32,000 nt of DNA, taken from assembly GCF_047555085.1 (NCBI RefSeq), contig NZ_CP180230.1, positions 960,001-992,000 of the forward strand. Reading direction: 5' to 3'. Source of the stretch: Candidatus Saccharimonadota bacterium (GTDB lineage Archaea; Nanohalarchaeota; Nanosalinia; Nanosalinales; Nanosalinaceae). The stretch's first letter is position 1, and the number at the start of each line of letters is the position of its first letter. Shown here piece by piece: positions 7,561 through 24,696 of this stretch. A program made the position numbers and the translations under genes. Below the pieces are notes generated by a model, which was not told where the DNA came from, made no database searches, and saw only the letters and a program-made list of their open reading frames with translations.

Positions 7561-10386
7561 GTGAAGAAACATCTCCTGACCTTGCTCCTCTTAGTAGGTT
7601 TGACAGGTTCTGCCGCAGGATTGGGAAAGGTAGACTGTGGAAACGGCGATTCCAGCATAAGTTTCAGCAACATCCCTGACAATATACTTGTTGATGAGTA
7701 CGGAGGAGACCTCAACACAGGCGAAGACATCTACATCAAGCCATTCGACATCAACAATAGACACACCAACGTATACATCGATATACATCTTTTGAAGGAT
7801 AAACATGATGTTTGTACAAGCGAAGAAGTTCCTTTCTGGGGCAATGACAAGGAAAACGGTGTCGTTGACCCTCATAAATTCTATGAGATAGACAGGAATG
7901 ATCTCTGGCCTTCTTCAGCATATATAGAGGATTACCAGGGAGAGCCTTGGAAGTCAGATAAAGGTGAGGCTCCTGTTCCGGGAACATACAAGGTAGTCGC
8001 CAAGTACACAAAAAATCCTTCTCCGATAGACACTATAGACAAGTGGAAGACAGCTTACCTCGGGAAAGTTGAAGTTAAAAGCGAAGGCGCCAGTGAAGTT
8101 GAGACAGGATATCATTACTGCGGGCGGGGCAATCCAAGAGACTATGATGAAGTGCAGATATTTGATGAACAGAGGCCTCTGTTGACAGATCTTGATGGAA
8201 ATCAGCTGAATGTTGGAGACTACGTAAGAGTAAACGGATACAAGATTCAGGGAGCTATGGGGAAGACCTACATGTCTCTACTACCTATAGATAACCACCC
8301 ATGTGACTTCGGAGGCTTCGAACTGATAGATTATTACATAGACGGCCAGGGAGGCACCGTTGACTGGACCGAGGGCTGGGAGGCAGACGTAGATTCCGAC
8401 ACAAAGGCCTCCCAGGCAGGAGAATTCCGTGTAGTATTACGTTACAGTGCAGGAAACGTCGATCCTGGCGAAGTCCTTGGTACATGGAAGACGTGGTACC
8501 TGGGAGATGTAGAGGTGAAGCCGGACAACGAACCACCTAAAGCTGATTTTGAGACCAACAAGGAATACGCCGGCGTTAACGTACCCATTACTTTTGACTC
8601 AAAACCATCAAGCGACGATAAAGGCATTGAAAAATACAGATGGGATCTTGATGGAGATGGCAGCTACGATGAAGGAAACAGGGAAAAAATTGAGACAGAA
8701 TTCCAGACTGCCGGAGTCAAGACAGTAGGCCTGAAAGTCACAGACACCAATGGAGCTACAGACACTGTTAAGAAAAATATAGAGATATTTGAACTTCCTG
8801 AAGGAGAAGTGCAGGCCTCTGAAGAAATCATATCTCTTGGAAATGAAGTTAACTTCCAGTACAATGTTGGAGAAGGACAGTACAATCTGAATGTAAAAAT
8901 TGGCGGAGAAACTGTAAAGAACAAATACATAGAGACATCTGGAGAAGAGAGCGGATATATCTCATATCTTCCGGAAGAATCAGGAAGTATCGAGGCAGAA
9001 TTAGTGGTAAAACCAGAATGGTGGAATCTCCTCGAAAGCGAAGAAACTATCGACACAGCATCGACAAGTATTGAAGAGGCCTTTAACGAAGTTTCGATAA
9101 ATACAGAGCAGGGAAATGGCTACTACAGCTTCCAAACTGATGCGGACTCCAGAAACACGATTACAAGCATACAATGGGACTTGAATAACGATGGAAGTTA
9201 CGAAAAAGAGGGCAGAAGCATCCAGAATAGTTTCCTGACTCCTGGAAGCAAAGAGATAAGGCTGAAAGTTACAGATAATCTTGGAAACACAAAAACAGTG
9301 TCTGAAAATATAGAAATACGTGAAAACGGCGTACTATCAATCATAGAGAGATGTAGCATTGATAAGGACGACGAAAAAGTTGAACTGGAGGCCGATATAG
9401 CAGATTCCAGTGATATAGAGGCCTCAGTGAATATTTCCTGGCTTATTGACGATGAACAGGCCTCAAGGAAACTCAGCGAACTTGGCAAGTATCTAGAGGG
9501 GTCTACCAGTGTAGAAGATCTTGAGGCAGGTGATCACGAAGTTAGCGCAGTTGCAGAGCTGGATGGTCGTATCCTGGATACTCAAAGTTGTGGAGTATTC
9601 AATATAGAGCCTCTTCCTGAGGTAAATCCTTCTATAGAGCTTTATCCCTCTGATCCTGAAGTTCAGGAAACTGTAGATTTTGTGGCAACGCCCGATACAG
9701 AGTTTAGCTATGAATGGGATCTTAACGGAGATGGAGAGTATGGTAGAAATGGTAGAGAGGTAATAGAGCAGTACGAGGTTCCTGGAGAAAAATCTGTACG
9801 TGTCAGAGTTATTACAGAGGGAACTGTTATTGGAGAGGCCTCCAGAAGTTTCACAGTTCAGCAGCCAGAGGTTTCTTCAAGTCTTGATGTTGCGAAAGAT
9901 GAAGTAGCGCAAGGTGAGATGGTTCAGATAAGTTACAGTGTTGGAGAAGGGATTGTTGAGAACGGATTCAGGATTGTTATTGAGGATCCTTCAGGTGAAA
10001 AAATTAGAGATAGTTCAATGAATACTGCAAGCGGCACAGTTTCGTTCACACCAGAAAGTTCCTCGCCTACAGGAGAATACGAGGTAAGACTGGTCGCCGA
10101 GGAAGGATTCCTTGATGCGATACTGACCTCGATCTTCGGTCCCGAAGACGTCGAAAGTTTTGAAGTACTTGATGCCTCTGAAGAGTTGGACGTATGGAGA
10201 TCCTACTGTCAAGATAACGGATTTGAACAAAGTTCTGCCTCCGGAAGAGTCTCCTGTATACAGGATCAAATAGGCCCTAAATGTTTCAGGGAAGATCCTG
10301 GAGAAGAATGTATCGAAATAGCCGACAGCGTCTGCAAATACTACAGAGGAACAGAATTTAACGCAGAAGAAGGGAGGTGCAACTGA
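7561..10386 (+). CDS. secreted PKD-repeat surface protein with Cys-rich C-terminus, 941 aa
   Basis: It has a signal peptide MKKHLLTLLLLVGLTGSAAG and two N-terminal repeats ending WKT(A/W)YLG(K/D)VEVK. There are three PKD domains (WDLDGDGSYDEG...LKVTDTNG, WDLNNDGSYEKEG...LKVTDNLG, WDLNGDGEYGRNG) and six Cys in the last 60 aa. Confidence 0.85.
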   Translation: MKKHLLTLLLLVGLTGSAAGLGKVDCGNGDSSISFSNIPDNILVDEYGGDLNTGEDIYIKPFDINNRHTNVYIDIHLLKDKHDVCTSEEVPFWGNDKENGVVDPHKFYEIDRNDLWPSSAYIEDYQGEPWKSDKGEAPVPGTYKVVAKYTKNPSPIDTIDKWKTAYLGKVEVKSEGASEVETGYHYCGRGNPRDYDEVQIFDEQRPLLTDLDGNQLNVGDYVRVNGYKIQGAMGKTYMSLLPIDNHPCDFGGFELIDYYIDGQGGTVDWTEGWEADVDSDTKASQAGEFRVVLRYSAGNVDPGEVLGTWKTWYLGDVEVKPDNEPPKADFETNKEYAGVNVPITFDSKPSSDDKGIEKYRWDLDGDGSYDEGNREKIETEFQTAGVKTVGLKVTDTNGATDTVKKNIEIFELPEGEVQASEEIISLGNEVNFQYNVGEGQYNLNVKIGGETVKNKYIETSGEESGYISYLPEESGSIEAELVVKPEWWNLLESEETIDTASTSIEEAFNEVSINTEQGNGYYSFQTDADSRNTITSIQWDLNNDGSYEKEGRSIQNSFLTPGSKEIRLKVTDNLGNTKTVSENIEIRENGVLSIIERCSIDKDDEKVELEADIADSSDIEASVNISWLIDDEQASRKLSELGKYLEGSTSVEDLEAGDHEVSAVAELDGRILDTQSCGVFNIEPLPEVNPSIELYPSDPEVQETVDFVATPDTEFSYEWDLNGDGEYGRNGREVIEQYEVPGEKSVRVRVITEGTVIGEASRSFTVQQPEVSSSLDVAKDEVAQGEMVQISYSVGEGIVENGFRIVIEDPSGEKIRDSSMNTASGTVSFTPESSSPTGEYEVRLVAEEGFLDAILTSIFGPEDVESFEVLDASEELDVWRSYCQDNGFEQSSASGRVSCIQDQIGPKCFREDPGEECIEIADSVCKYYRGTEFNAEEGRCN
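8536..8795 (+). other. PKD domain 1
   Basis: PITFDSKPSSDDKGIEKYRWDLDGDGSYDEG...GVKTVGLKVTDTNGATDTVKKNIEI. Confidence 0.7.
9090..9320 (+). other. PKD domain 2
   Basis: YSFQTDADSRNTITSIQWDLNNDGSYEKEG...GSKEIRLKVTDNLGNTKTVSENIEI. Confidence 0.7.
9630..9860 (+). other. PKD domain 3
   Basis: VDFVATPDTEFSYEWDLNGDGEYGRNG...GEKSVRVRVITEG. Confidence 0.65.
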
Positions 10387-12999: not shown

Positions 13000-13033
13000 C
13001 AACATACTTCAAATAGGAGAACAGAATAATTAC

Positions 13034-13135
13034 GTGGGCAAGAGAATGAAGAACAAGAAACTCGGAGCTTTTCTGATAGGCCTGTTTGTCACATCCCTAA
13101 TGGTGTTCACAGGCACAAGCGCAAGCCTTCAGGCC
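13034..13135 (+). other. Sec-type signal peptide of the giant protein
   Basis: MGKRMKNKKLGAFLIGLFVTSLMVFTGTSASLQA|SD has a basic n-region, a hydrophobic core and an A-x-A-like site. Confidence 0.7.
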
Positions 13136-16100
13136 TCAGATATCTGCGACGCCGAGTCCGGAGACACATGCACCATCTCAAGTTCTTATGCTCTGAACGG
13201 AGATACTCTGAATTATTCAGGAACAGTGAACTTTGAGTCAGGTGCCAGCTTGACAGGTGGAGGAGATATCTACGCCGATGAATTTACAGGCCTTAACAAT
13301 CTGGATCTGGAAAACGGTGACACCGGAAATTTTTACCTATGTGAAAGGACGGGCGGTGTCACATGCAGGCCCGAATCAGATTCAGGCGTCTCACTGGACA
13401 CAAGTTACGAACTTGACTCAAGTAGATTCCTTTTCAGACAGATCAACGACAACTGGAGTTCTGGATACGTGAACTGGACGGATGATTTATCCCGTACTTC
13501 TGATCTCAACAGCAGCTTCAGCGACATGGAAGTAAATTATACTGTTTCCGGACTGACAGAGAATCTTGATTTCAAAATTTTCCAGGAAGGATCCCAGCTT
13601 ACAACTCAGGACTCTGGAATAAATTTCTCACATATAATAAATAGAAGTTTCACTGATGGGACAAGTAGTGGACTGACTACCGGAAACAGTCTGCGTCTAA
13701 AGGCTTCTTCTACTAGTGTGGCAGATATTGCGAGTAATCATAACGGGGACGAAACCAGTAGCCCAAATAATTACCCTTTCCGAAACAGATTCTCCCCAAC
13801 AAACACCGCTTACATCAATGGAGTTTGGTTGGCATCCGGGTACGAGACTGATATGAGTTACAATATTACAAATATTGACACAGGTAGAAAAGTCGTATCT
13901 GGAACGCACTTCCATAGTGGTGGTTTCCCAACTACAGATCAGATAAGCTATGACTTCCAGTTGTCCGAGTTTGAGACAGTGAAACTTAACTCCAGTGACA
14001 CATACGAGGTTGCATGGAGTGCTGATGATAGTCAGGGCTACTATGGAGGCAGCATACCATATACAGATTCAGGTATAGAATGGACATATTCTAATAGAGA
14101 AGCACAAGACGGGAACGCATGGAACGTAGGAGTAAATATTATAGATGGTTATCAAAGTTCAGGAGCTTACACTTCTCAGCCTCTAGATGCTGGCGAAAAG
14201 ATAGACTGGAATAGTTCCTATGTAGATATCTCTGAACCTGAATCAACCAGTATAAACACCTCATTTGCAGAAAATACGAGCAATAGCGGCACCTGGACAT
14301 ACTATGATTCAATAAAAAATGTGCCAGACTCACGCTACATAAAATACAAAATAGAGATGAGTACAGAGGATAGTTCGATAACACCAGTAGTAGATTCTAT
14401 CGATATATCCTTTAATCCTAACGGTCAGGATGGGGTTATTGAAGTTTCCCAGAACATAACTGGAGAGAACAAATTCGAAGTACTGGAGACTACTCCCCCA
14501 TCATATACTTCTCAGACACAGGGGAAAAATATTGTAGGAGCGCAAAACTACAATACTCTATCCTCTACGATTCAGGATTCAGGATCAGGCCTCAGGAAGG
14601 CAGTTCTTGCCACGAATGAAACCGGCTCTATGGAGAACAAGACGTCTTACACACAGAATTTTAACGGAGAGTTTTCGGAACAGACCGCAAGCTTTGACTG
14701 GAAAAACAGTTCTTTCCAGGGAGATTTCGCAGAGATTGAATGGCAGATCTGGTTCAGTGATATCGCAGGGAACTGGCAGAAAACCAGTGTGAAACAGTTT
14801 AAGGTAGATGGTATACCGCCGGAGATCTCAAATCTTGACTATCAGAATACTGTGGACGTGGATGAGGGATCCACCCAGATAACTTTTGATGTCACCGAAT
14901 CTGAGACAGATCTGAACTCAGTCATCATAAGAGAAAATTCTACAGGAGGCCTTGAAAATACAACATTGACTAGTCCTTACAGCTATACTCTCTCGACGAA
15001 TACTCCTTCGGAAGTAGATTTCACTGTATTCGCTGAGGATACAAAGGAAAACGTTGAACAGTCTTCAGGCACTGTAAGCTTCCAGAACATCAGTATAACC
15101 AAGTCATTGAACGCATCTGTAGTTAATTCCAGTGAGGCCTTTGAGATATCAGGATCTGCAGTGTTGAGGCCTTACGGGACGGCTTTAACTTCTGATCTGG
15201 ATTTATGGGCAGATATCGAGGGATGGACGAATCTTGGATCTATATCGCCTGTTGATGGAGCTTTTTCAAGAGTTGAAACTATCAAAAAACCAGGAACGCA
15301 TGAAATAAAATTAAATACAACACAGAACGGAATATACGGAGTTAGTGAAGGATCTATAGATGTTCTTCTGGATATAAACACTGTTTCAACAGTTTTTGAC
15401 TCTACAGGAAACTCTCATGTGGATATCGATACTTCAAACAAGAATCTGAATCTTTCAGCGAATATTTCAAGGCCTGTAGATGGCAGCGTTCAGACAGTGA
15501 TAGCAAATGTTTCGATGCCTGATGGAACATACAGAGAATTTGAACTCGGGACGAACGAGGGACATACATGGTACAGAGAAATCGATACAGATCAGGAGTT
15601 TGGAAGTCTGCAGGGCGAGTACAGTGTAACTTTCAGTGCTGAGACGACTGAAGGCCTTGGAAGTAATCTCCCTGCGAAAAGTTTCTATATTGAAAATATT
15701 ACTGTTGATTCAGAGCTCAGTGACAGCGTTGTCAGTATCGGGGAGGATTCTGAGATATCTGGAAATGTTATTTTGAGGCCTTACGGCGAAAGACTCGATG
15801 GTGGATCTGTAGAGGCCTCTAAAGGTTCTTTCTCCAGCGATTTCCCTGTGAACGGTACAGGGTACTACTCTGGTAGCGTGTTCTTTGATGAGCCAGGTAA
15901 CAAGACTGTTAATCTACAGTACGTGGATGAGAATGGTATTAAAGGCGTTAATTCTACGGAGATATCTGTTCTTAATCTTTCTGCCAGAATTACTGATGTC
16001 AGCACTGATAACGGCAATCTAAAGGTTTTCAGAGATTCTGATTCCGAGCCCGATGTAAGTTTCACAGATAACGTATCAGCTGACACGGAAAATCCTATGC

Positions 16101-19100
16101 CTGTTAGAGAAGTTGATCTAATCTATGATAGGCCTGAAGGCTGGCAGGGAACTTACAGTAGCTCTGTTGGGAATCTTTCCCCAGGAGAGTATGGCTCTGT
16201 GAATCCTGTTTTTGATATCGAGGCCGGTGCAGAGCTTGGCGTTAAGAATATCAGTATTTCGACTTCAACACAGGAAGACATCCAGGACACCGATAATGTC
16301 TCTGTAGAGGTCTGGACCCGTTCGGAGTCAGAGTATGTCAATCTTGATTATAATTCTTTGAACTCTATCAACAGGAATCTGGAGCTATACAGCATCTATG
16401 CAAACGTTACTGACACTGTAAACGGCGAACCGCTTGAAAACATCGATGTGCAGCTGATAAGTCAGGACGAGAGTATAGACCTCACCGAGACCTCTAATTC
16501 GACGGGCGGCGTAAACTTCACTCTTGATCTGTCTCAGCTGAGCACCGGAGAGTACGGAGTATCGATGCGTACATTTACCAACGAACAGGAGTTCGTTGAG
16601 ACATCTGAGACAGTCAGCTCCAACCTTGTTGACATAGCGATCCAGGGAGTGATGCAGAAAGGAACGCAGAACAGTATAGACCCTGTATACAGAAGCAATG
16701 ACTCAGTACAGCCTACAACAGGGATCTCAGGCATCATAGAAGACAGCACCGGCAACCCTCTTGAAGGCGCCACCGTAACAGGAGAGATAAATGGAGAAGG
16801 CCTCGGAGAAAAACAGACTGACAGCAACGGATACTACGGCTTCTCTTACAATCCTCCGGATAATATTCAGCCAGGAAATTATGCTGCAGAACTTGAGGCC
16901 TCCAAGACAGACTTCAAAACCTTTAATTTCAACAGGACTGTGGAAGTACGTGGCGCTCTTAACCTGAACAATAATCTGGAGAAAAATGTCCTAGGGAGAG
17001 GCCTCTCACACAACGTAGTTGCCAGTGTAACTAACGAGTACGGTGAAAATGTTCCCGGAAATGTTTCATGGTTCCTGAACTCCACAAAGGTGGGATCCGG
17101 GAAGAATACGGAGATCGACATACCTGAAAGCTTTGACAGAGGATTCTATACTCTGGAGGCATCTACGGACAGGGATTTCTTCGATGATGACTCAGATTCT
17201 GTAGACGTGAACGTGTACGGACAGGCCTCTGTAGAGATGACTCCTGAAGACTTCACAATAAGATCAGGGAACACAGTCACCTTTGAGGCCTCTGTAACGG
17301 ACGATAACAGTTCACAGAGCATATCTGATTATCCTGTAACTTTTGAAGTGAATGGACAGACATATGAGAGAACTACGAACAATTCAGGGATTGCAACATT
17401 TGATTGGACGAGTACAACAGGAGAATACGATGTAGAGGCCTCGATAAATGATAATGCTTCTCTGAACTACAATGCCACTGATTCGAACGACGTGACAGAG
17501 GTTTTCGTCGGCGATAAACTTTACCTGGATACTTTCAGGTTTTCTGAAAACGTGATCAATCGGTTCCCTGAGACTCCAGACCAGACCAGAATAAGACTGA
17601 ATCTTACACGCACCTCCAATACTATAGAAAGAGTGCCTGTAAGCAATGAAGAAGTCTCGTTCACAGTGAACGGATCTGAGACAGTGTCATGTACAACAGG
17701 TGAGGATGGAACATGCGGCGGATCACTTTGGTACAATCCTACAGATGCAGTTACTCCAGGGAATCTTACAGTACAGGCCTCTACAGATAGATCGAACTGG
17801 ATCGACGTCAGTGATTCAAGGAAGCTTGCGGTCAGAGGCCTGATGATTACATCGCTTGAATCGCCGGCTGATGGAACAAATCTTGCGCGTGGAGACTCAG
17901 TCCAGCTTGAAGCAGTTACAGATACTTTCAGTGGAGGGATTGTTGAAAGAGATATGACATGGACTCTTGACGGCACAGAGATTGCCAGCGGATACACCAC
18001 GTCCTGGGACATACCTGTAACACAGGACACCGGCGTTAAAACACTTACAGCTACTGGAGACGGCGAATTCTTCGATTCCAGCAGCGACAGCATCGATATC
18101 ACTATTCTTGGACAGGCCTCAGTAAATCTCCTGGAGCCGGACAACAGTAGTACTATAGGATACAGTCAGAACAGAAACGTCCGATGTGAAGTTGTAAGCG
18201 GACTGGACAGCCGCATACAGGGCTATCCTGTGGAATTTGTCGAGAACAGTTCAGGAGTCATGGAGACGTTCGCACAGTCAGTTACAGAGAACACCGGATC
18301 AGGCCTTGTAGCTGAGGCCTCATGGAGTCCTCCAGAAAAGATAACGAGTGTCGAGATGGGCTGTAGGATTGATACCAACGAGACGCTTGGATATCTGAAG
18401 GATCAAGGCCTTTCCACAAGAATCTATGAGACAGAAGACGATAGTCCGCCAGAGATAAGCAATCTTCAGGTTCCTGATCGTGTTGATCCCGGAGAAGTCG
18501 CTGATATAGAGTTCAATGCTTCGGATGAGATCGGTATCGACAGGATTGATGTTCAGGTACTTGATCCTGTGTTCAACGAGCTTGGAAGCGATGATATAAA
18601 CATAGTTAATACAACGGGTACGGGCTACCGTGTAGAGGTGCAGACACAGAGTTCTACTCAGGGAACTTATCGTGTGGATCTTGAGATATTTGATCCTTCA
18701 GGTAACTCCAAAGAGTTGCGGAGGACTTTCGACGCCCAGCCTGGAGGAAATCTGAATATAGATAACAAAAACATAGATGCAGGAGAGATAACATTCACCG
18801 AAGGCCTTACCGAAGAAGTAGGTGTAAGCTTCCAGAAAGAGGAGAACGATGGAGCAAATCTGAAGATAAATGTAAGCTCCAGTGTACTAGATTTCAATAC
18901 TTCTGAGTATGTCTGTGGCGATATCAATCCTGGAAATTACTGTAACAGAACATTTGAGGTAACTGTTCCTCCAGGCACCAGTCCTACCGGAAGCTCTCCT
19001 ATCTATGCATCTTTCAGAGCAGTCTGGGATAAAACTGATGGAACAGATGAGACAGCGAGTATTGGAGATTTCACAGAAGTTAACGTCGCAAGGAATCCGC

Positions 19101-22100
19101 AGTTCAGCGAGGAAACAGGAGAAAAAATAATTACAGGCCTCAGTGACAGCAGTACCGCAATAAATACCAGCGACATAAACAATGCATTCAGAGCAAATTC
19201 CTCCGGGAACGTGCCGGTACAGGACTACGAAGTGATCTATCACGAAGAAAATCTGCCGGAAGAATGGCTGACGGTATACAACGGTGAGAGATCATCAATA
19301 GATCCCGGCCAGGTTGTAGATACGGATGTAGGAATAAACATCACAGACGGTACAGGTCCCGGAAACTACACAGGCCTCTTCGAGTTCCGCAGCTCAAATT
19401 ACGGTAATATTACACGTGTTATAGCGATAAATCTGGATGCGAGGCCTGAATTTGAGGCTCCGGAAAAGATTTCAGCGTCGGCAGTTAGAGGTTCTTCGGG
19501 AAGTCTTGGAAGCCTGAAGTTGAATTCTACAGGAAACGTTGATCTATCACTGGAGGCGGCTGCTACCAACAATGCAGGAGTTAACAGCACGTGTGCGAAA
19601 AATATCGGGCCTGCTACGACACCAGTAACTCTGGAGAAACAGAGCAGTAAAGTCATAGATATCCAGTATAACTTTTCAGACGTTACTCTGAACTCGAATT
19701 CCTGTACACCGAAGATAGAGTTCACACCAGAAAAACCGGAGTATGATACAAGCCAGATAACAGAGTTCAGCATAAGTCTGCTTGACTTCACTCTTGATGC
19801 CTCTGCAGACGAAGTCTCTGCTATGCCAGGAGATGAAGCAGGCCTGAACTTTACAGCAAATATTGGAGATAGTCCGAGAACAACAAATCTCGATTACACT
19901 GTTTTCGTTGGCGGGAAAGAGGCCTCTATAACTGACAGCTCGATTACAGGGGATGGCTTCAGTCTGAATTATACTGTTCCTGATGTTGAGGATGCCAGGA
20001 GCCATGATGTCAGGCTGGAGGTCTACGACGAGGAGAACGGAGTTTCCCAGTCCCAGGTTTTCCGGGATTATGTCTCTGTTCCTGATGTGACTCCTCCGGA
20101 TTTCGGAGAAGTAGATATAGACGGCGTTAATCCTGGAGAGGATCAGGATATCCGTGTTCCTGTAATAGACAACAGTATCGACGGCGTACAGAGCATCTCC
20201 ATGACTTTGAATGGCGAAAACTTTTCAGAAAGTTACAGTCTCGTGGAGGACGGTCCTGAATGGATCACAACAGTAGAGAATATCTCTGAAGGAATTTATA
20301 CCGCCAACTTCACGGCCGTAGATCCTTCAGGCCTTGAATCGACAGCCAGTGATCGTTTCAGAGTATCCGAGAGCGCAAGCTTTAACGGAAGCTTCACAAG
20401 TTCCGCCGGCGATGTGAACAGTGATGCGACTATTACTCTTAGCGATAGCAGCACCGGCAGGACAGTGTCCAGTAAAGTCGGTGAAGACGGCAGCTACAGC
20501 CTGGATATCAAGACAGGTACCTATGACCTCAACGTGGCTTTCGAGGGCCAGAAGATAACAATGAACAATACGTTGATCAACAGTTCGAACATGTCTTTCA
20601 GGGCAGAGAAACTTTCAGAGGCCCAGACTTCAGGCCTTACTCCTTCATCGCAGACTTCCAGCAGGATTACAGGTATAGGAGTCGATACCAGCTTGGAGCC
20701 GGAGTCAAGTGAGATAACATTCAATTATTCAGGCCTTGATCTTCCTGATGGATACCAGATATCAGAGCTGAAAGTCGCAAGATGTGGAGAGTACGATTAC
20801 AGTAATCTTCGATGTAACACTGACAGCTTTGAAGTGCTAGATCTTGAGCCTCTTGATGTGAACAAGGCCCGTGAAACGATAACAGTTGATACAGACGGAT
20901 TCTCCTCATACACACTTTTCGCTCCTTCCGAAGACACAGGACAGGATCAGAACAACAATCAGGAGCAGGATAGCGGCGGGGGAGGCGGAGGCGGCGGAAG
21001 CTTCCCTGAAGATGCTCTCAACGATATAAATGACTCTGTTTCAGAGACTAAGGAGAAAGTCGAGAATCTTTCAGGCCGGCTGAACGATACTACCGAGACA
21101 CCAGGAGCAGAGCTCGGAAGCAGTTCGATAAATGCGGAGTTGAGGCCTGGAGAATCGATGACTGTTTCTCTTTCCGTTGCCAATACGGCAAATGATTCAC
21201 AGACTTTCATCTTTGATACCAATGATGTTGTCAGAGATTACATTGATGTAACGGATAGTGTAACTCTTGCTCCAGGAGAATCCCGTGATGTAATACTGAA
21301 TATTTCATCCCCTGCTGATGAACTGGCAGGCAGCTACTCGGGAACCCTGAGTGTTGAAAGCGATGAGATTAATACAGAGATACCTGTAAACGTCCAGATT
21401 CTGCCTCCGCAGAACAAATTGCTGGATATGTCTCTTGACCCAGTATTCAGTACAGTGAGGCCTGGAGAGGCCTTGCAGATAGAGACAACTTTCAGTAATC
21501 AGGGATACGCCCGGAATGTTGATGTTACTGCTAAGATTGATGTGATTGATCCTGATACGAACGCCAGTATAGCCAGTATTTCGGAGACTGTGGCCGTTGG
21601 AACTACATTGAACCGTGTGTTCGAAATCGATATTCCACGGGATACAGAGCTGAAAAGCTATGCGATCAGAGGATCTGCACGTTACACCAATCTTGATGTT
21701 GCACGAGTTGCTACAGCAGCTTCTTCGATAGAGATCGATATGCCTTTCTGGAGTCGTACTTTCTTCGGATTCACCTACCAGAATATAGGCCTTGGATTCC
21801 TCTTGCTCTTGCTTGTCTCCAGTACAGGCCTCGGACTGTATCATTACAAGAGAAAGAAGGAGCTTCAGAAGAAGCGTTACATGGAGAATATTGATCTTGA
21901 TACCATACCTACCGGTGGAAACAATCAGGCCTACCTAGGGCAGCTTGCTGAGGTCGGTACCAGGACCTTCCTGAACCTTGATGATCTTACTACGCACGCT
22001 CTGATAGCAGGTGCAACCGGTTCAGGGAAGACCGTTACCGGACAGGTAATGGTGGAGGAGGCCTTGGAGAACGGAGCAAATGTTATTGTCCTGGATCCTA

Positions 22101-22954
22101 CGGCTCAGTGGACAGGATATCTGCGTGAGAACCAGGATGAGAACATGTTCGAGCTGTACGACAAGTTCGGTCTCAGCCGTTCCGATGCAAGAGGATTCGA
22201 TGGAAACATCAGAGCTGTAGAACCGGGGGAAGAGATCGATATCACACCTTACCTGGAGCAGGATGAGGACGGACAGATCATAGTCTTCTCCCTGCACAAG
22301 CTTGACTCAAAGAATATCGACGAGTTCGCAAACAAGACTATCCAGCAGATTTTCGATGCCAACCTGCCTGAGAGAAACGGCCTTGAGACAGTAATCGTAT
22401 ACGACGAGGTACACCGACTTCTGGAGAAGTTCGGTGGAAACGGCGAAGGAATCAAACAGCTTGAAAGAGGAGCCAGAGAGTTCCGTAAATGGGGAGTCGG
22501 AATGGTCCTATTGAGCCAGGTAATCTCCGACTTCTCCGGAGAGATCCGTGCAAACATCGGTACGACAGTACAGATGCGTACACAGTACGACGACGATCTT
22601 GAAAGAATAAAGAACAAGTTCGGCATCGATACAGTCAAATCCATTGCAAAGGCTGAAGTCGGAAGCGGAATGCTTCAGAGCTCGGACTACAACCATGGAA
22701 GGCCTTACTTCATCGATTTCAGGCCTCTGCTCCACAGCCCACACAGATTGAGTGACGAGGAGCTGGACAAGTACGAACAGTACAACAAACGTATCGACAG
22801 CATCGAGGAGAAAGTCAACGAGCTGGAGGATCAGGGAGAGGAAGTATACGAGTACCGCAGCGAGCTCAAGTTGACGAAGAGAAACTTGAAGAAGGGAAGT
22901 TTCTCACTTGTCGATACCTACATCGATGAGCTGGAAGAAAAGCTTGATATGTAA
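13034..22954 (+). CDS. giant (3306 aa) surface protein fused through one TM helix to a cytoplasmic FtsK/HerA-superfamily ATPase
   Basis: An uninterrupted 9.9-kb ORF with consistent acidic, S/T/N-rich composition. It has a signal peptide and many Ig-like, CARDB-like and CarboxypepD_reg-like repeats. A single TM helix is followed by KRKKELQKKR, then Walker A AGATGSGKT, Walker B VIVYDEVH and GAREFRKWGVGMVLLSQ. The start is GTG 13034 or ATG 13046. Confidence 0.92.
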   Translation: MGKRMKNKKLGAFLIGLFVTSLMVFTGTSASLQASDICDAESGDTCTISSSYALNGDTLNYSGTVNFESGASLTGGGDIYADEFTGLNNLDLENGDTGNFYLCERTGGVTCRPESDSGVSLDTSYELDSSRFLFRQINDNWSSGYVNWTDDLSRTSDLNSSFSDMEVNYTVSGLTENLDFKIFQEGSQLTTQDSGINFSHIINRSFTDGTSSGLTTGNSLRLKASSTSVADIASNHNGDETSSPNNYPFRNRFSPTNTAYINGVWLASGYETDMSYNITNIDTGRKVVSGTHFHSGGFPTTDQISYDFQLSEFETVKLNSSDTYEVAWSADDSQGYYGGSIPYTDSGIEWTYSNREAQDGNAWNVGVNIIDGYQSSGAYTSQPLDAGEKIDWNSSYVDISEPESTSINTSFAENTSNSGTWTYYDSIKNVPDSRYIKYKIEMSTEDSSITPVVDSIDISFNPNGQDGVIEVSQNITGENKFEVLETTPPSYTSQTQGKNIVGAQNYNTLSSTIQDSGSGLRKAVLATNETGSMENKTSYTQNFNGEFSEQTASFDWKNSSFQGDFAEIEWQIWFSDIAGNWQKTSVKQFKVDGIPPEISNLDYQNTVDVDEGSTQITFDVTESETDLNSVIIRENSTGGLENTTLTSPYSYTLSTNTPSEVDFTVFAEDTKENVEQSSGTVSFQNISITKSLNASVVNSSEAFEISGSAVLRPYGTALTSDLDLWADIEGWTNLGSISPVDGAFSRVETIKKPGTHEIKLNTTQNGIYGVSEGSIDVLLDINTVSTVFDSTGNSHVDIDTSNKNLNLSANISRPVDGSVQTVIANVSMPDGTYREFELGTNEGHTWYREIDTDQEFGSLQGEYSVTFSAETTEGLGSNLPAKSFYIENITVDSELSDSVVSIGEDSEISGNVILRPYGERLDGGSVEASKGSFSSDFPVNGTGYYSGSVFFDEPGNKTVNLQYVDENGIKGVNSTEISVLNLSARITDVSTDNGNLKVFRDSDSEPDVSFTDNVSADTENPMPVREVDLIYDRPEGWQGTYSSSVGNLSPGEYGSVNPVFDIEAGAELGVKNISISTSTQEDIQDTDNVSVEVWTRSESEYVNLDYNSLNSINRNLELYSIYANVTDTVNGEPLENIDVQLISQDESIDLTETSNSTGGVNFTLDLSQLSTGEYGVSMRTFTNEQEFVETSETVSSNLVDIAIQGVMQKGTQNSIDPVYRSNDSVQPTTGISGIIEDSTGNPLEGATVTGEINGEGLGEKQTDSNGYYGFSYNPPDNIQPGNYAAELEASKTDFKTFNFNRTVEVRGALNLNNNLEKNVLGRGLSHNVVASVTNEYGENVPGNVSWFLNSTKVGSGKNTEIDIPESFDRGFYTLEASTDRDFFDDDSDSVDVNVYGQASVEMTPEDFTIRSGNTVTFEASVTDDNSSQSISDYPVTFEVNGQTYERTTNNSGIATFDWTSTTGEYDVEASINDNASLNYNATDSNDVTEVFVGDKLYLDTFRFSENVINRFPETPDQTRIRLNLTRTSNTIERVPVSNEEVSFTVNGSETVSCTTGEDGTCGGSLWYNPTDAVTPGNLTVQASTDRSNWIDVSDSRKLAVRGLMITSLESPADGTNLARGDSVQLEAVTDTFSGGIVERDMTWTLDGTEIASGYTTSWDIPVTQDTGVKTLTATGDGEFFDSSSDSIDITILGQASVNLLEPDNSSTIGYSQNRNVRCEVVSGLDSRIQGYPVEFVENSSGVMETFAQSVTENTGSGLVAEASWSPPEKITSVEMGCRIDTNETLGYLKDQGLSTRIYETEDDSPPEISNLQVPDRVDPGEVADIEFNASDEIGIDRIDVQVLDPVFNELGSDDINIVNTTGTGYRVEVQTQSSTQGTYRVDLEIFDPSGNSKELRRTFDAQPGGNLNIDNKNIDAGEITFTEGLTEEVGVSFQKEENDGANLKINVSSSVLDFNTSEYVCGDINPGNYCNRTFEVTVPPGTSPTGSSPIYASFRAVWDKTDGTDETASIGDFTEVNVARNPQFSEETGEKIITGLSDSSTAINTSDINNAFRANSSGNVPVQDYEVIYHEENLPEEWLTVYNGERSSIDPGQVVDTDVGINITDGTGPGNYTGLFEFRSSNYGNITRVIAINLDARPEFEAPEKISASAVRGSSGSLGSLKLNSTGNVDLSLEAAATNNAGVNSTCAKNIGPATTPVTLEKQSSKVIDIQYNFSDVTLNSNSCTPKIEFTPEKPEYDTSQITEFSISLLDFTLDASADEVSAMPGDEAGLNFTANIGDSPRTTNLDYTVFVGGKEASITDSSITGDGFSLNYTVPDVEDARSHDVRLEVYDEENGVSQSQVFRDYVSVPDVTPPDFGEVDIDGVNPGEDQDIRVPVIDNSIDGVQSISMTLNGENFSESYSLVEDGPEWITTVENISEGIYTANFTAVDPSGLESTASDRFRVSESASFNGSFTSSAGDVNSDATITLSDSSTGRTVSSKVGEDGSYSLDIKTGTYDLNVAFEGQKITMNNTLINSSNMSFRAEKLSEAQTSGLTPSSQTSSRITGIGVDTSLEPESSEITFNYSGLDLPDGYQISELKVARCGEYDYSNLRCNTDSFEVLDLEPLDVNKARETITVDTDGFSSYTLFAPSEDTGQDQNNNQEQDSGGGGGGGGSFPEDALNDINDSVSETKEKVENLSGRLNDTTETPGAELGSSSINAELRPGESMTVSLSVANTANDSQTFIFDTNDVVRDYIDVTDSVTLAPGESRDVILNISSPADELAGSYSGTLSVESDEINTEIPVNVQILPPQNKLLDMSLDPVFSTVRPGEALQIETTFSNQGYARNVDVTAKIDVIDPDTNASIASISETVAVGTTLNRVFEIDIPRDTELKSYAIRGSARYTNLDVARVATAASSIEIDMPFWSRTFFGFTYQNIGLGFLLLLLVSSTGLGLYHYKRKKELQKKRYMENIDLDTIPTGGNNQAYLGQLAEVGTRTFLNLDDLTTHALIAGATGSGKTVTGQVMVEEALENGANVIVLDPTAQWTGYLRENQDENMFELYDKFGLSRSDARGFDGNIRAVEPGEEIDITPYLEQDEDGQIIVFSLHKLDSKNIDEFANKTIQQIFDANLPERNGLETVIVYDEVHRLLEKFGGNGEGIKQLERGAREFRKWGVGMVLLSQVISDFSGEIRANIGTTVQMRTQYDDDLERIKNKFGIDTVKSIAKAEVGSGMLQSSDYNHGRPYFIDFRPLLHSPHRLSDEELDKYEQYNKRIDSIEEKVNELEDQGEEVYEYRSELKLTKRNLKKGSFSLVDTYIDELEEKLDM
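20975..20998 (+). other. Gly8 hinge or linker in the giant protein
   Basis: Eight consecutive GGN codons (QDS-GGGGGGGG-SFPED) are preceded by the low-complexity QDQNNNQEQD. Confidence 0.8.
21785..21841 (+). other. single transmembrane helix of the giant protein
   Basis: IGLGFLLLLLVSSTGLGLY is followed by HYKRKKELQKKR. By the positive-inside rule the C-terminal domain is cytoplasmic. Confidence 0.8.
21880..22740 (+). other. FtsK/HerA-superfamily (DUF87/HerA-like) P-loop ATPase domain
   Basis: HALIAGATGSGKTVTGQ...NVIVLDPTAQWTGY (Walker A at 22010-22033), ETVIVYDEVHRLL (Walker B at 22391-22414) and GAREFRKWGVGMVLLSQVISDF (22469-22519) resemble the HerA/DUF87 arrangement. Confidence 0.75.
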
Positions 22955-22974: not shown

Positions 22975-24114
22975 ATGGGAGTACTGGGCCTATTTTCAAA
23001 CAGCAGTAACGAAGAAACAGTTTCTGATGCAGTATCTGAGGCCCAGGATCAGGTAGAGGACCTGGACGACGGAAAAGAGGAATGGGATCCCAACGAGAAC
23101 GAGCAGGAGGAAGACCTGAAAGGAGACTCCGAACTTGTCGCAGAGCTGCAAAAGGCAAAAGCCCAGATCGAAGGGATCAAACAACAGCAGGAAAGACTTT
23201 CTTCCAAAAATGATCACCTTGAGGAAAACATCGGAGGAATCCGTGAAAACATCAAGGAGATACAGAGTCAGGCCCAGGAATCCATCTCGAAGGCGGAAAA
23301 GGCCTCGGACATGGTGGAGGAACTGGAGCCCGAAGAAATCGAGAAAAAACTCTCAAAGCAACACTCCGAACACGAAGAGCTTCGAAGCAAGATAGAGGAG
23401 GAACGAGAGAAAAGAAGTGAACTAAGAAATCAGATCAGAGAGTTACGTGGAAAGATCGATGAGATCGGCTCGATTGAAAGCCTCAAGGAGATGAAAGACG
23501 ACGTCGAGTCGAAACTTGAAACAATAAGCAAACTCGAGGACAAGACCGAAGTACAGGAAAACAAAGTAGAGGATATCTTCCAGGAACTCCAGTCAAAGGC
23601 CTCAAAGATAGAGAAAATGGAGGACAAACAGGGAGAACTGGATAACAGATTCACAGATGTAAGGAAACGTTTCGATGATCTCCAGATCAAGTATGAAGGC
23701 CTTCCCTCGGAGGACGATTTCAACGATACTGTCGAGGAACTGGAAGATGAGATAGACGAGATAAATGAAGTTGTCGCAGCAGTAGAAAATGCATTCGATG
23801 AGATCGAAAAGTTACAGGAAAAGTCTATAGTCACAGAAGATGATCTGGATGAAAAGGCAGATCTCAATACTGTCAAAAACATCGAGGAGAATCTTCAGAA
23901 CGATATAGAAAACTCGAGGCCTGAAGTCTCACACAGTGACATTGAGGACATACAACAGGAGCTGAATCAAGTTCAGAACAGAATCAATCAACTGGAACAG
24001 TCAGACACCCAGGATACCCATGGGGAAGTGACCCGGAAAGAGTTCGATAAACTGCGCGAAGACGTAACCTATCTATCAGAAGCAGTTGTCAAACTCACAA
24101 AGAACAACAATTAA
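22975..24114 (+). CDS. acidic coiled-coil protein, 379 aa
   Basis: The ATG lies 20 nt after the giant gene's stop. The protein is almost entirely E/K/Q/L/I-rich heptad-like sequence (e.g. ELRSKIEEEREKRSELRNQIRELRGKIDEIG). I see no enzymatic motif. Confidence 0.8.
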   Translation: MGVLGLFSNSSNEETVSDAVSEAQDQVEDLDDGKEEWDPNENEQEEDLKGDSELVAELQKAKAQIEGIKQQQERLSSKNDHLEENIGGIRENIKEIQSQAQESISKAEKASDMVEELEPEEIEKKLSKQHSEHEELRSKIEEEREKRSELRNQIRELRGKIDEIGSIESLKEMKDDVESKLETISKLEDKTEVQENKVEDIFQELQSKASKIEKMEDKQGELDNRFTDVRKRFDDLQIKYEGLPSEDDFNDTVEELEDEIDEINEVVAAVENAFDEIEKLQEKSIVTEDDLDEKADLNTVKNIEENLQNDIENSRPEVSHSDIEDIQQELNQVQNRINQLEQSDTQDTHGEVTRKEFDKLREDVTYLSEAVVKLTKNNN

Positions 24115-24321
24115 TTTCTACAGCATCTCGCACAAAGAACCATTTTTCTCCACCCAACTACATACTACTCACATAGCTTCTCATGAGCACTCCACAGACA
24201 CCAGACTGTGCAAAAAAATCGAACACTACATACATCAAGAGAGTTCACAAAAATCAAACATACCTTTCTTTTTAAAATATACCGACACCACTAAACAAGA
24301 ATAAAAATTACGGCACCCTAC

Positions 24322-24335
24322 GTCATGAGTGTTCA
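24322..24335 (+). repeat. 14-bp direct repeat GTCATGAGTGTTCA, copy 1
   Basis: A perfect copy lies 343 bp away at 24665-24678. Both are preceded by CTA-N. Confidence 0.7.
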
Positions 24336-24554
24336 AGTAGAACAAACACCCACAGAAATTAGAGAGGGCTTCTAGAGGACATTTACAGGCATCTCAGATT
24401 CAACGAGTCAATAGTTCCTGGAAAAAGAGAAGATAAAGGAAAAACAGGCCTGTGCACAGAGCCTGTATGCTGACAAAATCGAGACACAAAGGCCTTAACA
24501 AACCTTCTTTAATGAGAATCGGATCTTCTTGCCTGGAAAGAAACTATCAAAATT

Positions 24555-24568
24555 ATACCTTCTTTATT
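24555..24568 (+). repeat. ATACCTTCTTTATT promoter-like motif, copy 1
   Basis: It repeats perfectly at 24647-24660. Related copies lie at 24501-24513 (AACCTTCTTTAAT), 24260-24278 (ATACCTTTCTTTTTAAAAT) and 2247-2257 on the minus strand, upstream of CDS 1751..2230. Confidence 0.6.
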
Positions 24569-24646
24569 GTATGGCAGATCTGTCTGGCATACCCTTGCCC
24601 AAGCGTCAAGAATATATCAAGAAACACGCACTCCGCAGAAGATAAC

Positions 24647-24660
24647 ATACCTTCTTTATT
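24647..24660 (+). repeat. ATACCTTCTTTATT promoter-like motif, copy 2
   Basis: A perfect 14-mer repeat of 24555-24568, immediately followed by CTAG and GTCATGAGTGTTCA. Confidence 0.6.
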
Positions 24661-24664
24661 CTAG

Positions 24665-24678
24665 GTCATGAGTGTTCA
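24665..24678 (+). repeat. 14-bp direct repeat GTCATGAGTGTTCA, copy 2
   Basis: A perfect copy of 24322-24335 that also forms half of the hairpin at the 3' end of the tRNA-binding protein gene. Confidence 0.7.
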
Positions 24679-24696
24679 GACTATTCGCACACTCAT
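24668..24696 (-). terminator. hairpin abutting the stop codon of the CsaA-like gene
   Basis: ATGAGTGT (24668-24675) pairs with ACACTCAT (24689-24696), a perfect 8-bp stem with a 13-nt loop starting 1 nt after the minus-strand stop (24697-24699). Confidence 0.35.

Follow-up and report, generated by a model that had tools for sequence, protein, structure and literature searches.

What is the role of a single archaeal gene that joins a very long, adhesion-type exterior through one transmembrane (TM) helix to a P-loop ATPase, and is such a gene an oddity or a member of a family? The question is raised by a plus-strand gene at 13034-22954 of the window, a stretch of 32,000 nucleotides of contig NZ_CP180230.1 (positions 960,001 to 992,000; assembly GCF_047555085.1). 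The protein is very probably a member of the SPEARE, or giant membrane-anchored extracellular protein, family and has the corresponding architecture: a Sec-type signal peptide, an ectodomain of about 2,880 residues, one TM helix, a cytoplasmic ATPase and a helical tail. This design has already been published. What is new is the reassignment of the ATPase to HerA, the conserved partner gene downstream and the scope of the family, which extends across the DPANN archaea.

Relation to the SPEARE family

The name SPEARE was given by Hamm et al. 2019 (PMC6642349) to very long nanohaloarchaeal proteins that are mostly extracytoplasmic, have a TM domain toward the C-terminus and are most conserved in the cytoplasmic region, which was taken as a type III restriction enzyme. 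The same study reports expression of the protein, and homologues of its cytoplasmic part in Woesearchaeota, Aenigmarchaeota, Micrarchaeota and Altiarchaeales. NAR1_1133 of Ca. Nanohaloarchaeum antarcticus has 5,998 residues and the protein of Ca. Nanopetramus SG9 has 8,553, while the four SPEARE genes of SG9 make up 4% of the genome (PMC6642349). SVXNc_0300 (9,409 residues) and BNXNv_0298 (8,880 residues), described by Reva et al. 2023 (PMC10266531), consist of a Sec signal, an array of immunoglobulin (Ig)-like domains, a TM helix, a cytosolic ATPase and a terminal coiled coil. These authors call the ATPase ‘VirB4/TraG-like’, reject the endonuclease reading, note a second ATPase gene downstream and propose a ‘straw’ for effectors that resembles a type IV secretion system (T4SS). 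Since they also dispute the laminin-G and serine-protease domains of the earlier study, these domains are treated here as non-defining. In other papers, SPEARE is used as a symbiosis marker.

The direct family comparison made here is with the SG9 and Nanohalovita loci, rather than with the Nha. antarcticus sequence itself. In tblastn against the SG9 locus, window residues 2142-3306 match the C-terminus of the 8,553-residue protein and residues 2706-3306 match the adjacent 625-residue paralogue, with E about 1e-100. The C-terminal piece of the window protein is 41-44% identical to the ATPase regions of both the giant and the short copies in SG9 and Nanohalovita. The original prediction, made from the letters of the window, stated that no characterised case of such a fusion was known. 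That statement has to be withdrawn, since the same architecture is described in PMC6642349 and PMC10266531 and the window protein is homologous.

The window protein shares with the SPEARE proteins of Hamm et al. 2019 the very long reading frame, the adhesion-type extracytoplasmic bulk, the single C-terminal TM helix, the conserved cytoplasmic domain and the phylum. It differs from them in its shorter length (3,306 residues), in the absence of an adjacent short paralogue, and in having no Pfam match to laminin-G, serine-protease or toxin-like domains at E<=0.05-0.1, either in the whole protein or in 300-residue tiles. The label ‘restriction endonuclease’ is not supported for its cytoplasmic domain. 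The order of parts is identical to that of SVXNc_0300 and BNXNv_0298, but only the loci of these two have a second ATPase gene of ~628 codons between the giant and coiled-coil genes, and only their proteins have WD40/PQQ propellers at the tip. Their ATPase was called VirB4/TraG-like by the authors, whereas HerA comes first in the searches made here. The window protein introduces no new principle; it is a compact, single-gene example of 3.3 thousand residues, compared with 6-9 thousand. The model that it sharpens, together with the family survey, has a HerA-like motor, which is not a restriction enzyme and not demonstrably VirB4, and which is accompanied by two juxtamembrane Ig domains and a dedicated coiled-coil partner gene, and an ectodomain that is a fast-evolving module of variable length.

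In the legend to Fig. 7 of PMC6642349, AQV86_02330 is a SPEARE protein of 3,315 residues, while in the protein collection this tag belongs to a 625-residue short ATPase (P0094), whose gene lies directly downstream of the 8,553-residue SG9 gene. The tags or the sizes in the legend seem to be shuffled.

The reading frame and its orthologues

The frame is uninterrupted over 3,306 codons, as originally claimed, with no stop in 13034-22954. The ATG at 13046 is a likelier start than the listed GTG at 13034, because residue 1 of the orthologue P0131 (3,328 residues) aligns with window residue 5. The sequence AGGAG is found at 13016-13020, upstream of both codons. P0131, which is 52% identical, is colinear with the window protein from residue 5 through to the last, and P0132 (3,314 residues), 46% identical, is colinear as well. 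Locus L010 aligns over residues 93-3306 and L008 over residues 1062-3306, up to the edge of its own contig. These four, L011, L013 and dozens of further lineages all have a continuous junction of ectodomain, TM helix and ATPase. Since colinear full-length relatives come from independent assemblies, the gene is not an assembly chimera, and the join between its two halves shows no break in any of these comparisons. A protein identical to that of the window was not found in the collections searched, where the best match has 88-92% identity in the ATPase region.

Conservation increases steeply from the tip toward the cell. Measured against the two closest orthologues, the tip is 35-41% identical, the juxtamembrane Ig pair 61-69%, the ATPase 92% and the tail 79-83%; within the variable ectodomain (residues 36-2647), single segments are 31-57% identical to the orthologues. 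This gradient is what would be expected for a diversifying, host-facing exterior mounted on a conserved engine.

The cytoplasmic ATPase and the helical tail

The cytoplasmic P-loop domain is located at 21911-22753. Features of the FtsK-HerA superfamily reportedly defined by Iyer and co-workers in 2004 are Walker A, a Walker B of the form hhhhDE, an arginine finger and a polar Q that ends the sensor strand. Every motif quoted in the original prediction is present in its place: Walker A AGATGSGKT (residues 2992-3000; 22007-22033), NVIVLDPTAQWTGY, which contains the DPTAQW motif (22079-22120), Walker B VIVYDEVH (22391-22414), GAREFRKWGVGMVLLSQ, with the pattern REFRKWG...SQ (22469-22519), and the basic cluster KRKKELQKKR. 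Among 37 homologues AGATGSGKT, VIVYDEVH and REFRKWGVGMVLLSQ are invariant, the last being aligned to the HerA motif REGRKFGVGL..SQ, and the residues of Walker A, Walker B, REFRK and SQ are all unchanged. Judging from these motif residues, the ATPase is catalytically complete.

In Pfam, the C-terminal 407 residues match the DUF87/HerA central domain (1.6e-12), HerA_C (1.2e-9) and ResIII (5e-10), the last only over the P-loop core and with E values of 1.5e-8 to 5e-10 over the scans. The TrwB, FtsK and T4SS profiles score weaker. The best NCBIfam match, CedD (1.7e-11), is partial and has 43.5 bits against a cut-off of 600. HerA helicases and defence HerAs come first in the PDB, both by phmmer and by the profile of the 37 sequences (1.8e-13 to 3.5e-9 with the profile); IcmO/DotL is found only at 1.6e-4. 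VirB4 (4ag5) reaches only E 0.0077 by phmmer, and is neither among the profile matches to the PDB at E<=0.01 nor among the top 50 of Foldseek.

The fold leads to the same assignment. A single-chain AlphaFold model of the C-terminal piece, built on the alignment of the 37 sequences, has a predicted local distance difference test (pLDDT) score of 93.4 and a predicted template modelling (pTM) score of 0.87. When it is compared with the PDB by Foldseek, Sulfolobus HerA (4D2I) comes first at 6e-13, followed by HerA-NurA (9X1M) at 2e-11 and then by Sir2-HerA, DUF4297-HerA and TdpAB. The top 38 matches are all HerA or HerA-like (TdpA) chains, and the coupling protein TcpA (8.6e-9) and FtsK (~1e-8) stand behind them. 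Sequence profile, PDB profile and predicted fold thus all support placing the motor in the HerA clade of the FtsK-HerA superfamily. The original prediction had read the domain as a HerA/DUF87-like P-loop translocase, and in this it was correct: the homology is found in both Pfam and the PDB, and HerA ranks first in profile and fold searches (E 1e-13 to 6e-13).

HerA proteins (4D2I, 9X1M, Sir2-HerA and DUF4297-HerA) are the best matches by sequence profile and by fold, and have in common with the window ATPase the DPxxxW/Y motif after strand 2, a Walker B of the form hhhhDE-x-H and a REGRK-like arginine-finger motif with a terminal SQ. Identity in the structural alignments is only 13-18%, and the window protein, unlike HerA, is anchored in the membrane and has an extracellular part. 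The general logic, an N-terminal membrane anchor combined with a ring ATPase in the cytosol by which DNA or protein is moved across or along a membrane, is also that of FtsK/SpoIIIE and of the coupling proteins TrwB, TcpA and IcmO/DotL. CedB and CedD, the ATPases of Ced DNA import, are likewise members of the FtsK-HerA superfamily. The window ATPase scores far under the cut-offs of all these families, however, and has one TM helix instead of two to five. It also has neither the gamma domain of FtsK nor an all-alpha domain, while a giant ectodomain is absent from those systems.

The protein ends in a tail at 22754-22951. Where a coiled coil had originally been read, the AlphaFold model has three terminal helices (342-367, 373-388 and 391-406 of the piece; residues 3241-3305 of the protein), with pLDDT values of 94-97.

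The ectodomain and membrane topology

Only two hydrophobic regions are found in a Kyte-Doolittle scan of the protein, a signal-like segment at the N-terminus and residues 2909-2938. The former, MKNKKLGAFLIGLFVTSLMVFTGTSASLQA (13046-13138), is the putative signal peptide, and 79 of the 141 newly listed relatives described below also have a hydrophobic N-terminal segment. The latter contains the single TM helix (21785-21841), which is a helix at residues 16-47 of the C-terminal piece in the AlphaFold model; its core, GFLLLLLVSSTGLGLY, lies at 21794-21841 and is followed by the basic stop-transfer cluster KRKKELQKKR at 21848-21877. The ectodomain has 80 N-x-S/T sequons, compared with one in the C-terminal 361 residues. 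Because of this asymmetry and, by the positive-inside rule, of the basic cluster just after the TM helix, the N-terminus is predicted to be outside and the C-terminus, with the ATPase, inside the cell. The original claim of one TM helix and a cytoplasmic ATPase thus receives indirect support from hydropathy, sequons and charge.

The modules named in that prediction (Ig-like, CarboxypepD_reg-like and CARDB-like) are recovered by Pfam in the whole ectodomain, which is an assembly of Ig-like, CarboxypepD_reg and NEW3/CARDB modules. Three to four copies of CarboxypepD_reg (the best at 16724-16972), Big_1 (about 17228-17473), Big_3_5, Big_7, three copies of NPCBM_assoc/NEW3, CARDB/Ig_VWA7 and an MG2-like domain are matched, while no Pfam family matches the first ~600 residues. 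The variable part, residues 36-2647 (13139-20974), consists of divergent beta-sandwich modules. Since self-BLASTP of the protein finds no recently duplicated internal repeats, the array is made up of old, divergent modules rather than of recent tandem duplications.

The variable array ends at a run of eight glycines, Gly8 (20975-20998), which marks the boundary with the conserved core; the short 857-residue relative L012 aligns from residue 2659, a few residues past the run. The run is followed by a short predicted helix and sits exactly at this boundary. In L043, a giant of Micrarchaeota, a Pro/Gly-rich linker and a helix are found at the equivalent place. The Gly8 run may serve as a hinge or as a place for processing, and this bears on the proteomic split reported in PMC6642349 and discussed below. 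Two juxtamembrane Ig-like domains, CARDB/Ig_VWA7 and NPCBM_assoc/NEW3 (21134-21688), are part of the core, and this pair is also present in the ~625-residue short versions P0094, P0110 and P0014.

Giant archaeal surface proteins of the halomucin type have, to our knowledge, no C-terminal TM helix with a cytoplasmic ATPase. Halomucin of Haloquadratum walsbyi (in PMC6642349) otherwise resembles the window ectodomain, as it is likewise an acidic, glycoprotein-like, extracellular protein of several thousand residues from hypersaline archaea.

Distribution and modularity of the family

The core of TM helix and ATPase occurs in at least 591 species-level DPANN and Altiarchaeota genomes in a pattern scan that took one genome per species. 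Its taxa are Nanohalo-, Woese-, Pace-, Micr- and Aenigmat-archaeia, Nanoarchaeia, Diapherotrites and Altiarchaeota; besides Altiarchaeota, the family reaches the majority of DPANN phyla. When 1.84 billion representative proteins (a 50%-representative library) were searched exhaustively with HMMER, 348 proteins matched at E<=1e-30. The 141 newly listed ones have a median length of 1,447 residues and a maximum of 6,253; 56 have at least 2,000 residues, 37 at least 3,000 and 17 at least 4,000. Of the 141, 122 match a Walker A pattern, and 116 of the 122 have a TM-like segment that precedes Walker A by no more than 130 residues. The stop-to-stop frame that bears the ATPase has 403 to more than 4,057 codons over the 80 retrieved loci, many of these frames running off the 10-kb flank. 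The ‘giant chimeric’ gene is therefore not the one-off that it was first taken for, since long fusions of ectodomain and ATPase are the norm, with hundreds of representatives.

The length of the ectodomain varies from 0 to more than 5,500 residues. The ~625-residue versions represent the conserved core, which consists of a signal peptide, two CARDB/NEW3 Ig domains, the TM helix, the ATPase and the helical tail. When fused forms are compared with split or short ones, the fusions prove widespread across DPANN and Altiarchaeota, and in a neighbour-joining tree of the ATPase domain the long and short forms are intermingled, from which it follows that ectodomain length changes often.

Tandem pairs of one long and one short ATPase gene occur in SG9, Nanohalovita and some Woesearchaeota, and tblastn finds two ATPase copies in SG9 and Nanohalovita as against one in the clade of the window (L008-L013). 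By these sequence comparisons, the window gene is from a sister nanohaloarchaeal clade in which a single gene is followed by the partner, with no tandem short paralogue. The giant gene and the adjacent gene of ~625 codons both end in a TM helix and an ATPase in SG9 (L003 1-9878) and in Nanohalovita (L004 1-9887). Within each of these two, the paired ATPases are nearest relatives in the neighbour-joining tree, which suggests recent duplication or gene conversion; perhaps mixed rings are formed from both.

The ProkHueca metagenome contig L001 lacks about 40 codons at 9938-10011, Walker A included, and its frame shifts there, so that the gene is called as a protein of 3,949 residues and a fragment of 258 (P0007). 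Either the variant is natural, with a dead motor or as a pseudogene, or the assembly is in error here. In loci of the Woesearchaeota type (L005 2627-13542, L033, L070 and L072), a conserved secreted protein of ~1,000 residues accompanies the ATPase genes (20 loci), and small RHH-like proteins (13 loci) and signal-peptide proteins of ~105 residues (12 loci) also recur. All three appear to be lineage-specific additions to the module.

The conserved partner gene

Just 20 nucleotides downstream of the giant gene, on the same strand, a gene at 22975-24114 encodes an acidic, all-helical cytoplasmic protein of 379 residues, which has neither a signal peptide nor a TM helix. The L008 homologue shares 72% identity with it, and those of L010, L011, L012 and L001 share 41-47%. 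A hidden Markov model built from six nanohaloarchaeal partners matches exactly one open reading frame in each of 61 of the 86 loci (1,468 frames searched), and in all but three the matched frame closely follows the ATPase gene and shares its strand. The same family of 61 loci, which spans DPANN phyla, is recovered by BLAST clustering, and no other gene family is comparably widespread. Its members are 280-740 residues long and carry the signature …ERF.R.SE.IGELR…KA.DLVE.VQPEKLM…, with an invariant G87 and P119.

No Pfam, NCBIfam or PDB family matches the partner beyond coiled-coil noise. Its AlphaFold model is poor (pLDDT 61.6), and Foldseek finds nothing below E=3 with this low-confidence model. 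Searches for homologues by word index returned one match with the single sequence and nine with the profile, probably because low-complexity words swamp the selection of candidates. Many family members start with MG[VIL][LF] or MxFFKKK. An identity as an ESCRT-III/PspA/Vipp1 protein was considered because of N-termini such as MGVLGLF, MGLFGKK and MLFFKKK and of a PspA_IM30 match (E 0.34) that spans the whole profile. It was ruled out: the profile search of the PDB gives only generic coiled coils, with no PspA, Vipp1, CHMP or Snf7, NCBIfam gives only SMC/Rad50 noise, and the Foldseek result offers no support.

The SPEARE accounts in PMC6642349 and PMC10266531 make no mention of the coiled-coil gene as a conserved partner. 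Neither the HerA assignment nor the partner gene was found in the DPANN literature searched, the coverage of which is incomplete.

A possible mechanism and its alternatives

The explanation that we consider probable overall combines the family identity and anatomy given above with the following mechanism. The Sec-type signal would export the glycoprotein-like Ig array of ~2,880 residues, which the flexible Gly8 joins to the conserved core. The ATPase would form a hexameric ring under the membrane, as HerA-FtsK enzymes do, with six TM helices, and up to six ectodomains would thereby be bundled into a long fibre. The fast-evolving distal part of this fibre would bind the envelope of a haloarchaeal host, and ATP hydrolysis at the contact site would drive the movement of a polymer, with DNA as the first guess and protein as the second. 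The coiled-coil partner could be an adaptor, a stator or a substrate. DNA is put first because the nearest characterised structural relatives are double-stranded DNA translocases and because DPANN symbionts typically lack nucleotide synthesis. Whether the ATPase is a motor for macromolecule transfer at host contact is an evenly balanced question, and the choice of DNA as the substrate is tentative and less likely than not to be right. The contact-dependent attachment or transfer put forward in the original prediction matches published speculation, and the putative function is host adhesion coupled to macromolecule translocation.

Nanohaloarchaeota and other DPANN archaea do not make many of their building blocks and live attached to host cells. 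SPEARE-type proteins, which take up several per cent of some tiny genomes, are leading candidates for holding the host and extracting material from it. It is also possible, although we would not favour it over its negation, that the two-gene core, a single-pass HerA-clade ATPase with two external Ig domains and a coiled-coil protein, is a DPANN-wide engine for contact-dependent transfer of DNA or protein, distinct from T4SS, Ced/Ted and type VII secretion systems. The giant ectodomains would then be interchangeable add-ons for host recognition, and the partner an adaptor or substrate. If this is true, such a system would give genome-reduced archaeal symbionts in general a way to draw macromolecules from their hosts. 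The cytoplasmic domain and the partner are the minimal construct for biochemistry.

Several observations weigh against a translocating motor at the host contact. A channel formed by six single TM helices is unlikely to be wide enough to admit double-stranded DNA, and no conserved polytopic membrane or channel protein accompanies the module in the 86 loci clustered. Minimal members of 402-416 residues (e.g. P0020 and P0023) consist of TM helix, ATPase and tail with no ectodomain, so the motor works without an adhesin, adhesion is an add-on and the function of the core could have nothing to do with host contact. In contrast to HerA, the window protein has no HAS-barrel N-terminal domain, since only ~55 residues, with two short strands in the AlphaFold model, lie between the TM helix and Walker A, and it has no NurA, Sir2 or nuclease partner, no NurA-like nuclease being encoded in the window. 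In the proteomics of Ca. Nha. antarcticus, the ectodomain and the cytoplasmic part were found in different size fractions (PMC6642349), so the two halves may be separated after synthesis.

The T4SS-like straw of Reva et al. 2023 (PMC10266531), in which a VirB4/TraG-type ATPase works with the giant protein as a conduit for effectors into the host, is unlikely. VirB4, TraG and HerA do belong to one superfamily, the topology of an N-terminal TM helix and a cytosolic ATPase resembles that of coupling proteins, and weak partial matches to TraC-F-type (3e-7), VirB4_plasma, TraD, TrwB_AAD_bind and T4SS-DNA_transf accompany the Foldseek match to TcpA. HerA, however, outranks all T4SS ATPases by profile and by fold, and a search at E<=1 of the C-terminus of the window protein, of P0110 and of P0094 does not find the N-domain of VirB4 (PF03135) that had been claimed for the short paralogue. 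No pilin, VirB3, VirB6 or VirB8-like gene is present in the window or recurrent in the 86 loci, and an array of Ig domains is a fibre rather than an obvious tube. The lack of a conserved channel component would suit instead an adhesin whose ATPase acts from inside as a regulator or clustering device, oligomerising the fibres or remodelling the partner, and thereby setting adhesion strength, positioning or release without any translocation. The companions of the ATPase, two Ig domains and a cytoplasmic coiled-coil protein, fit this role, and the helical tail, well conserved as it is (79-83%), could dock the partner. Members with no ectodomain (P0020, P0023) are difficult to reconcile with it, and the characterised HerA-FtsK enzymes are polymer translocases, so we hold this alternative to be rather improbable.

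Export of the downstream helical protein by the ATPase, as in the type VII pair of EssC/EccC and WXG100, is very improbable. It was suggested by repeated weak WXG100 matches at partner residues 204-276 (21.7 bits for the window protein and 27.5 for that of L008, where the cut-off is 27.3), by a turn, KYEGLPS, that is conserved among close homologues of the partner, and by the adjacency of partner and ATPase genes in 61 loci. The WXG100 scores are coiled-coil noise, however, since SMC, Rad50 and MCP score equally well or better; the partner has 280-740 residues where substrates have ~100, its low-confidence model has no EsxA-like match, and the ATPase, unlike EssC, has one P-loop domain and no FHA domain. 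A cytoplasmic restriction endonuclease that degrades imported host DNA, as proposed by Hamm et al. 2019 (PMC6642349), has scarcely any probability left. It agrees with the ResIII match of the C-terminal domain, but ResIII is a profile of the helicase, or P-loop, subunit rather than of a nuclease and covers only the core that runs from Walker A up to Walker B. No domain of a nuclease type is found, the DUF87/HerA match is the better one, the fold is that of HerA, and the reading was rejected in PMC10266531. Least of all can the gene be explained as an artefact in which misassembly or a frameshift has fused two separate genes, one for an adhesin and one for an ATPase; this is a negligible prospect. 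The frame of L001 does break inside the ATPase, with the Walker A region missing, and a separate short ATPase gene stands beside the giant gene in some genomes; yet the junction is continuous in the six relatives listed above and in many further lineages, and in SG9 and Nanohalovita the giant genes themselves end in TM helix and ATPase.

Genomic setting and minor features

The G+C content is even across the region around the giant gene. Its neighbours in the window are grpE-dnaK-dnaJ and genes for a PKD surface protein, ZIP, NikR, a glyoxalase, an M24 peptidase, RPA and RadA; these archaeal housekeeping genes indicate an archaeal chromosome. The window DNA, flanks and gene included, is ~74% identical to the ‘Candidatus Nanohalarchaeota’ metagenome-assembled genome NHA29, which places the window in Nanohaloarchaeota and bears out the earlier guess of a small-genome, host-associated archaeon.

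The PKD surface protein, encoded upstream at 7561-10386, has 941 residues, with a signal peptide, PKD domains and a Cys-rich C-terminus, and is probably another envelope or adhesion protein. The window has no Rfam match at the gathering thresholds and no tRNA genes. The gap at 24115-24696, downstream of the partner gene, has no open reading frame, no tRNA and no Rfam match at E<=1 (24.1-24.7 kb). A stretch of ~111 bp within it (24550-24660) is 77% conserved with L008 8297-8407, while the remainder of the gap is unalignable. This stretch has an imperfect direct repeat of 20 nucleotides (24552-24573 and 24644-24664), and may hold a pair of promoters or encode a small RNA.

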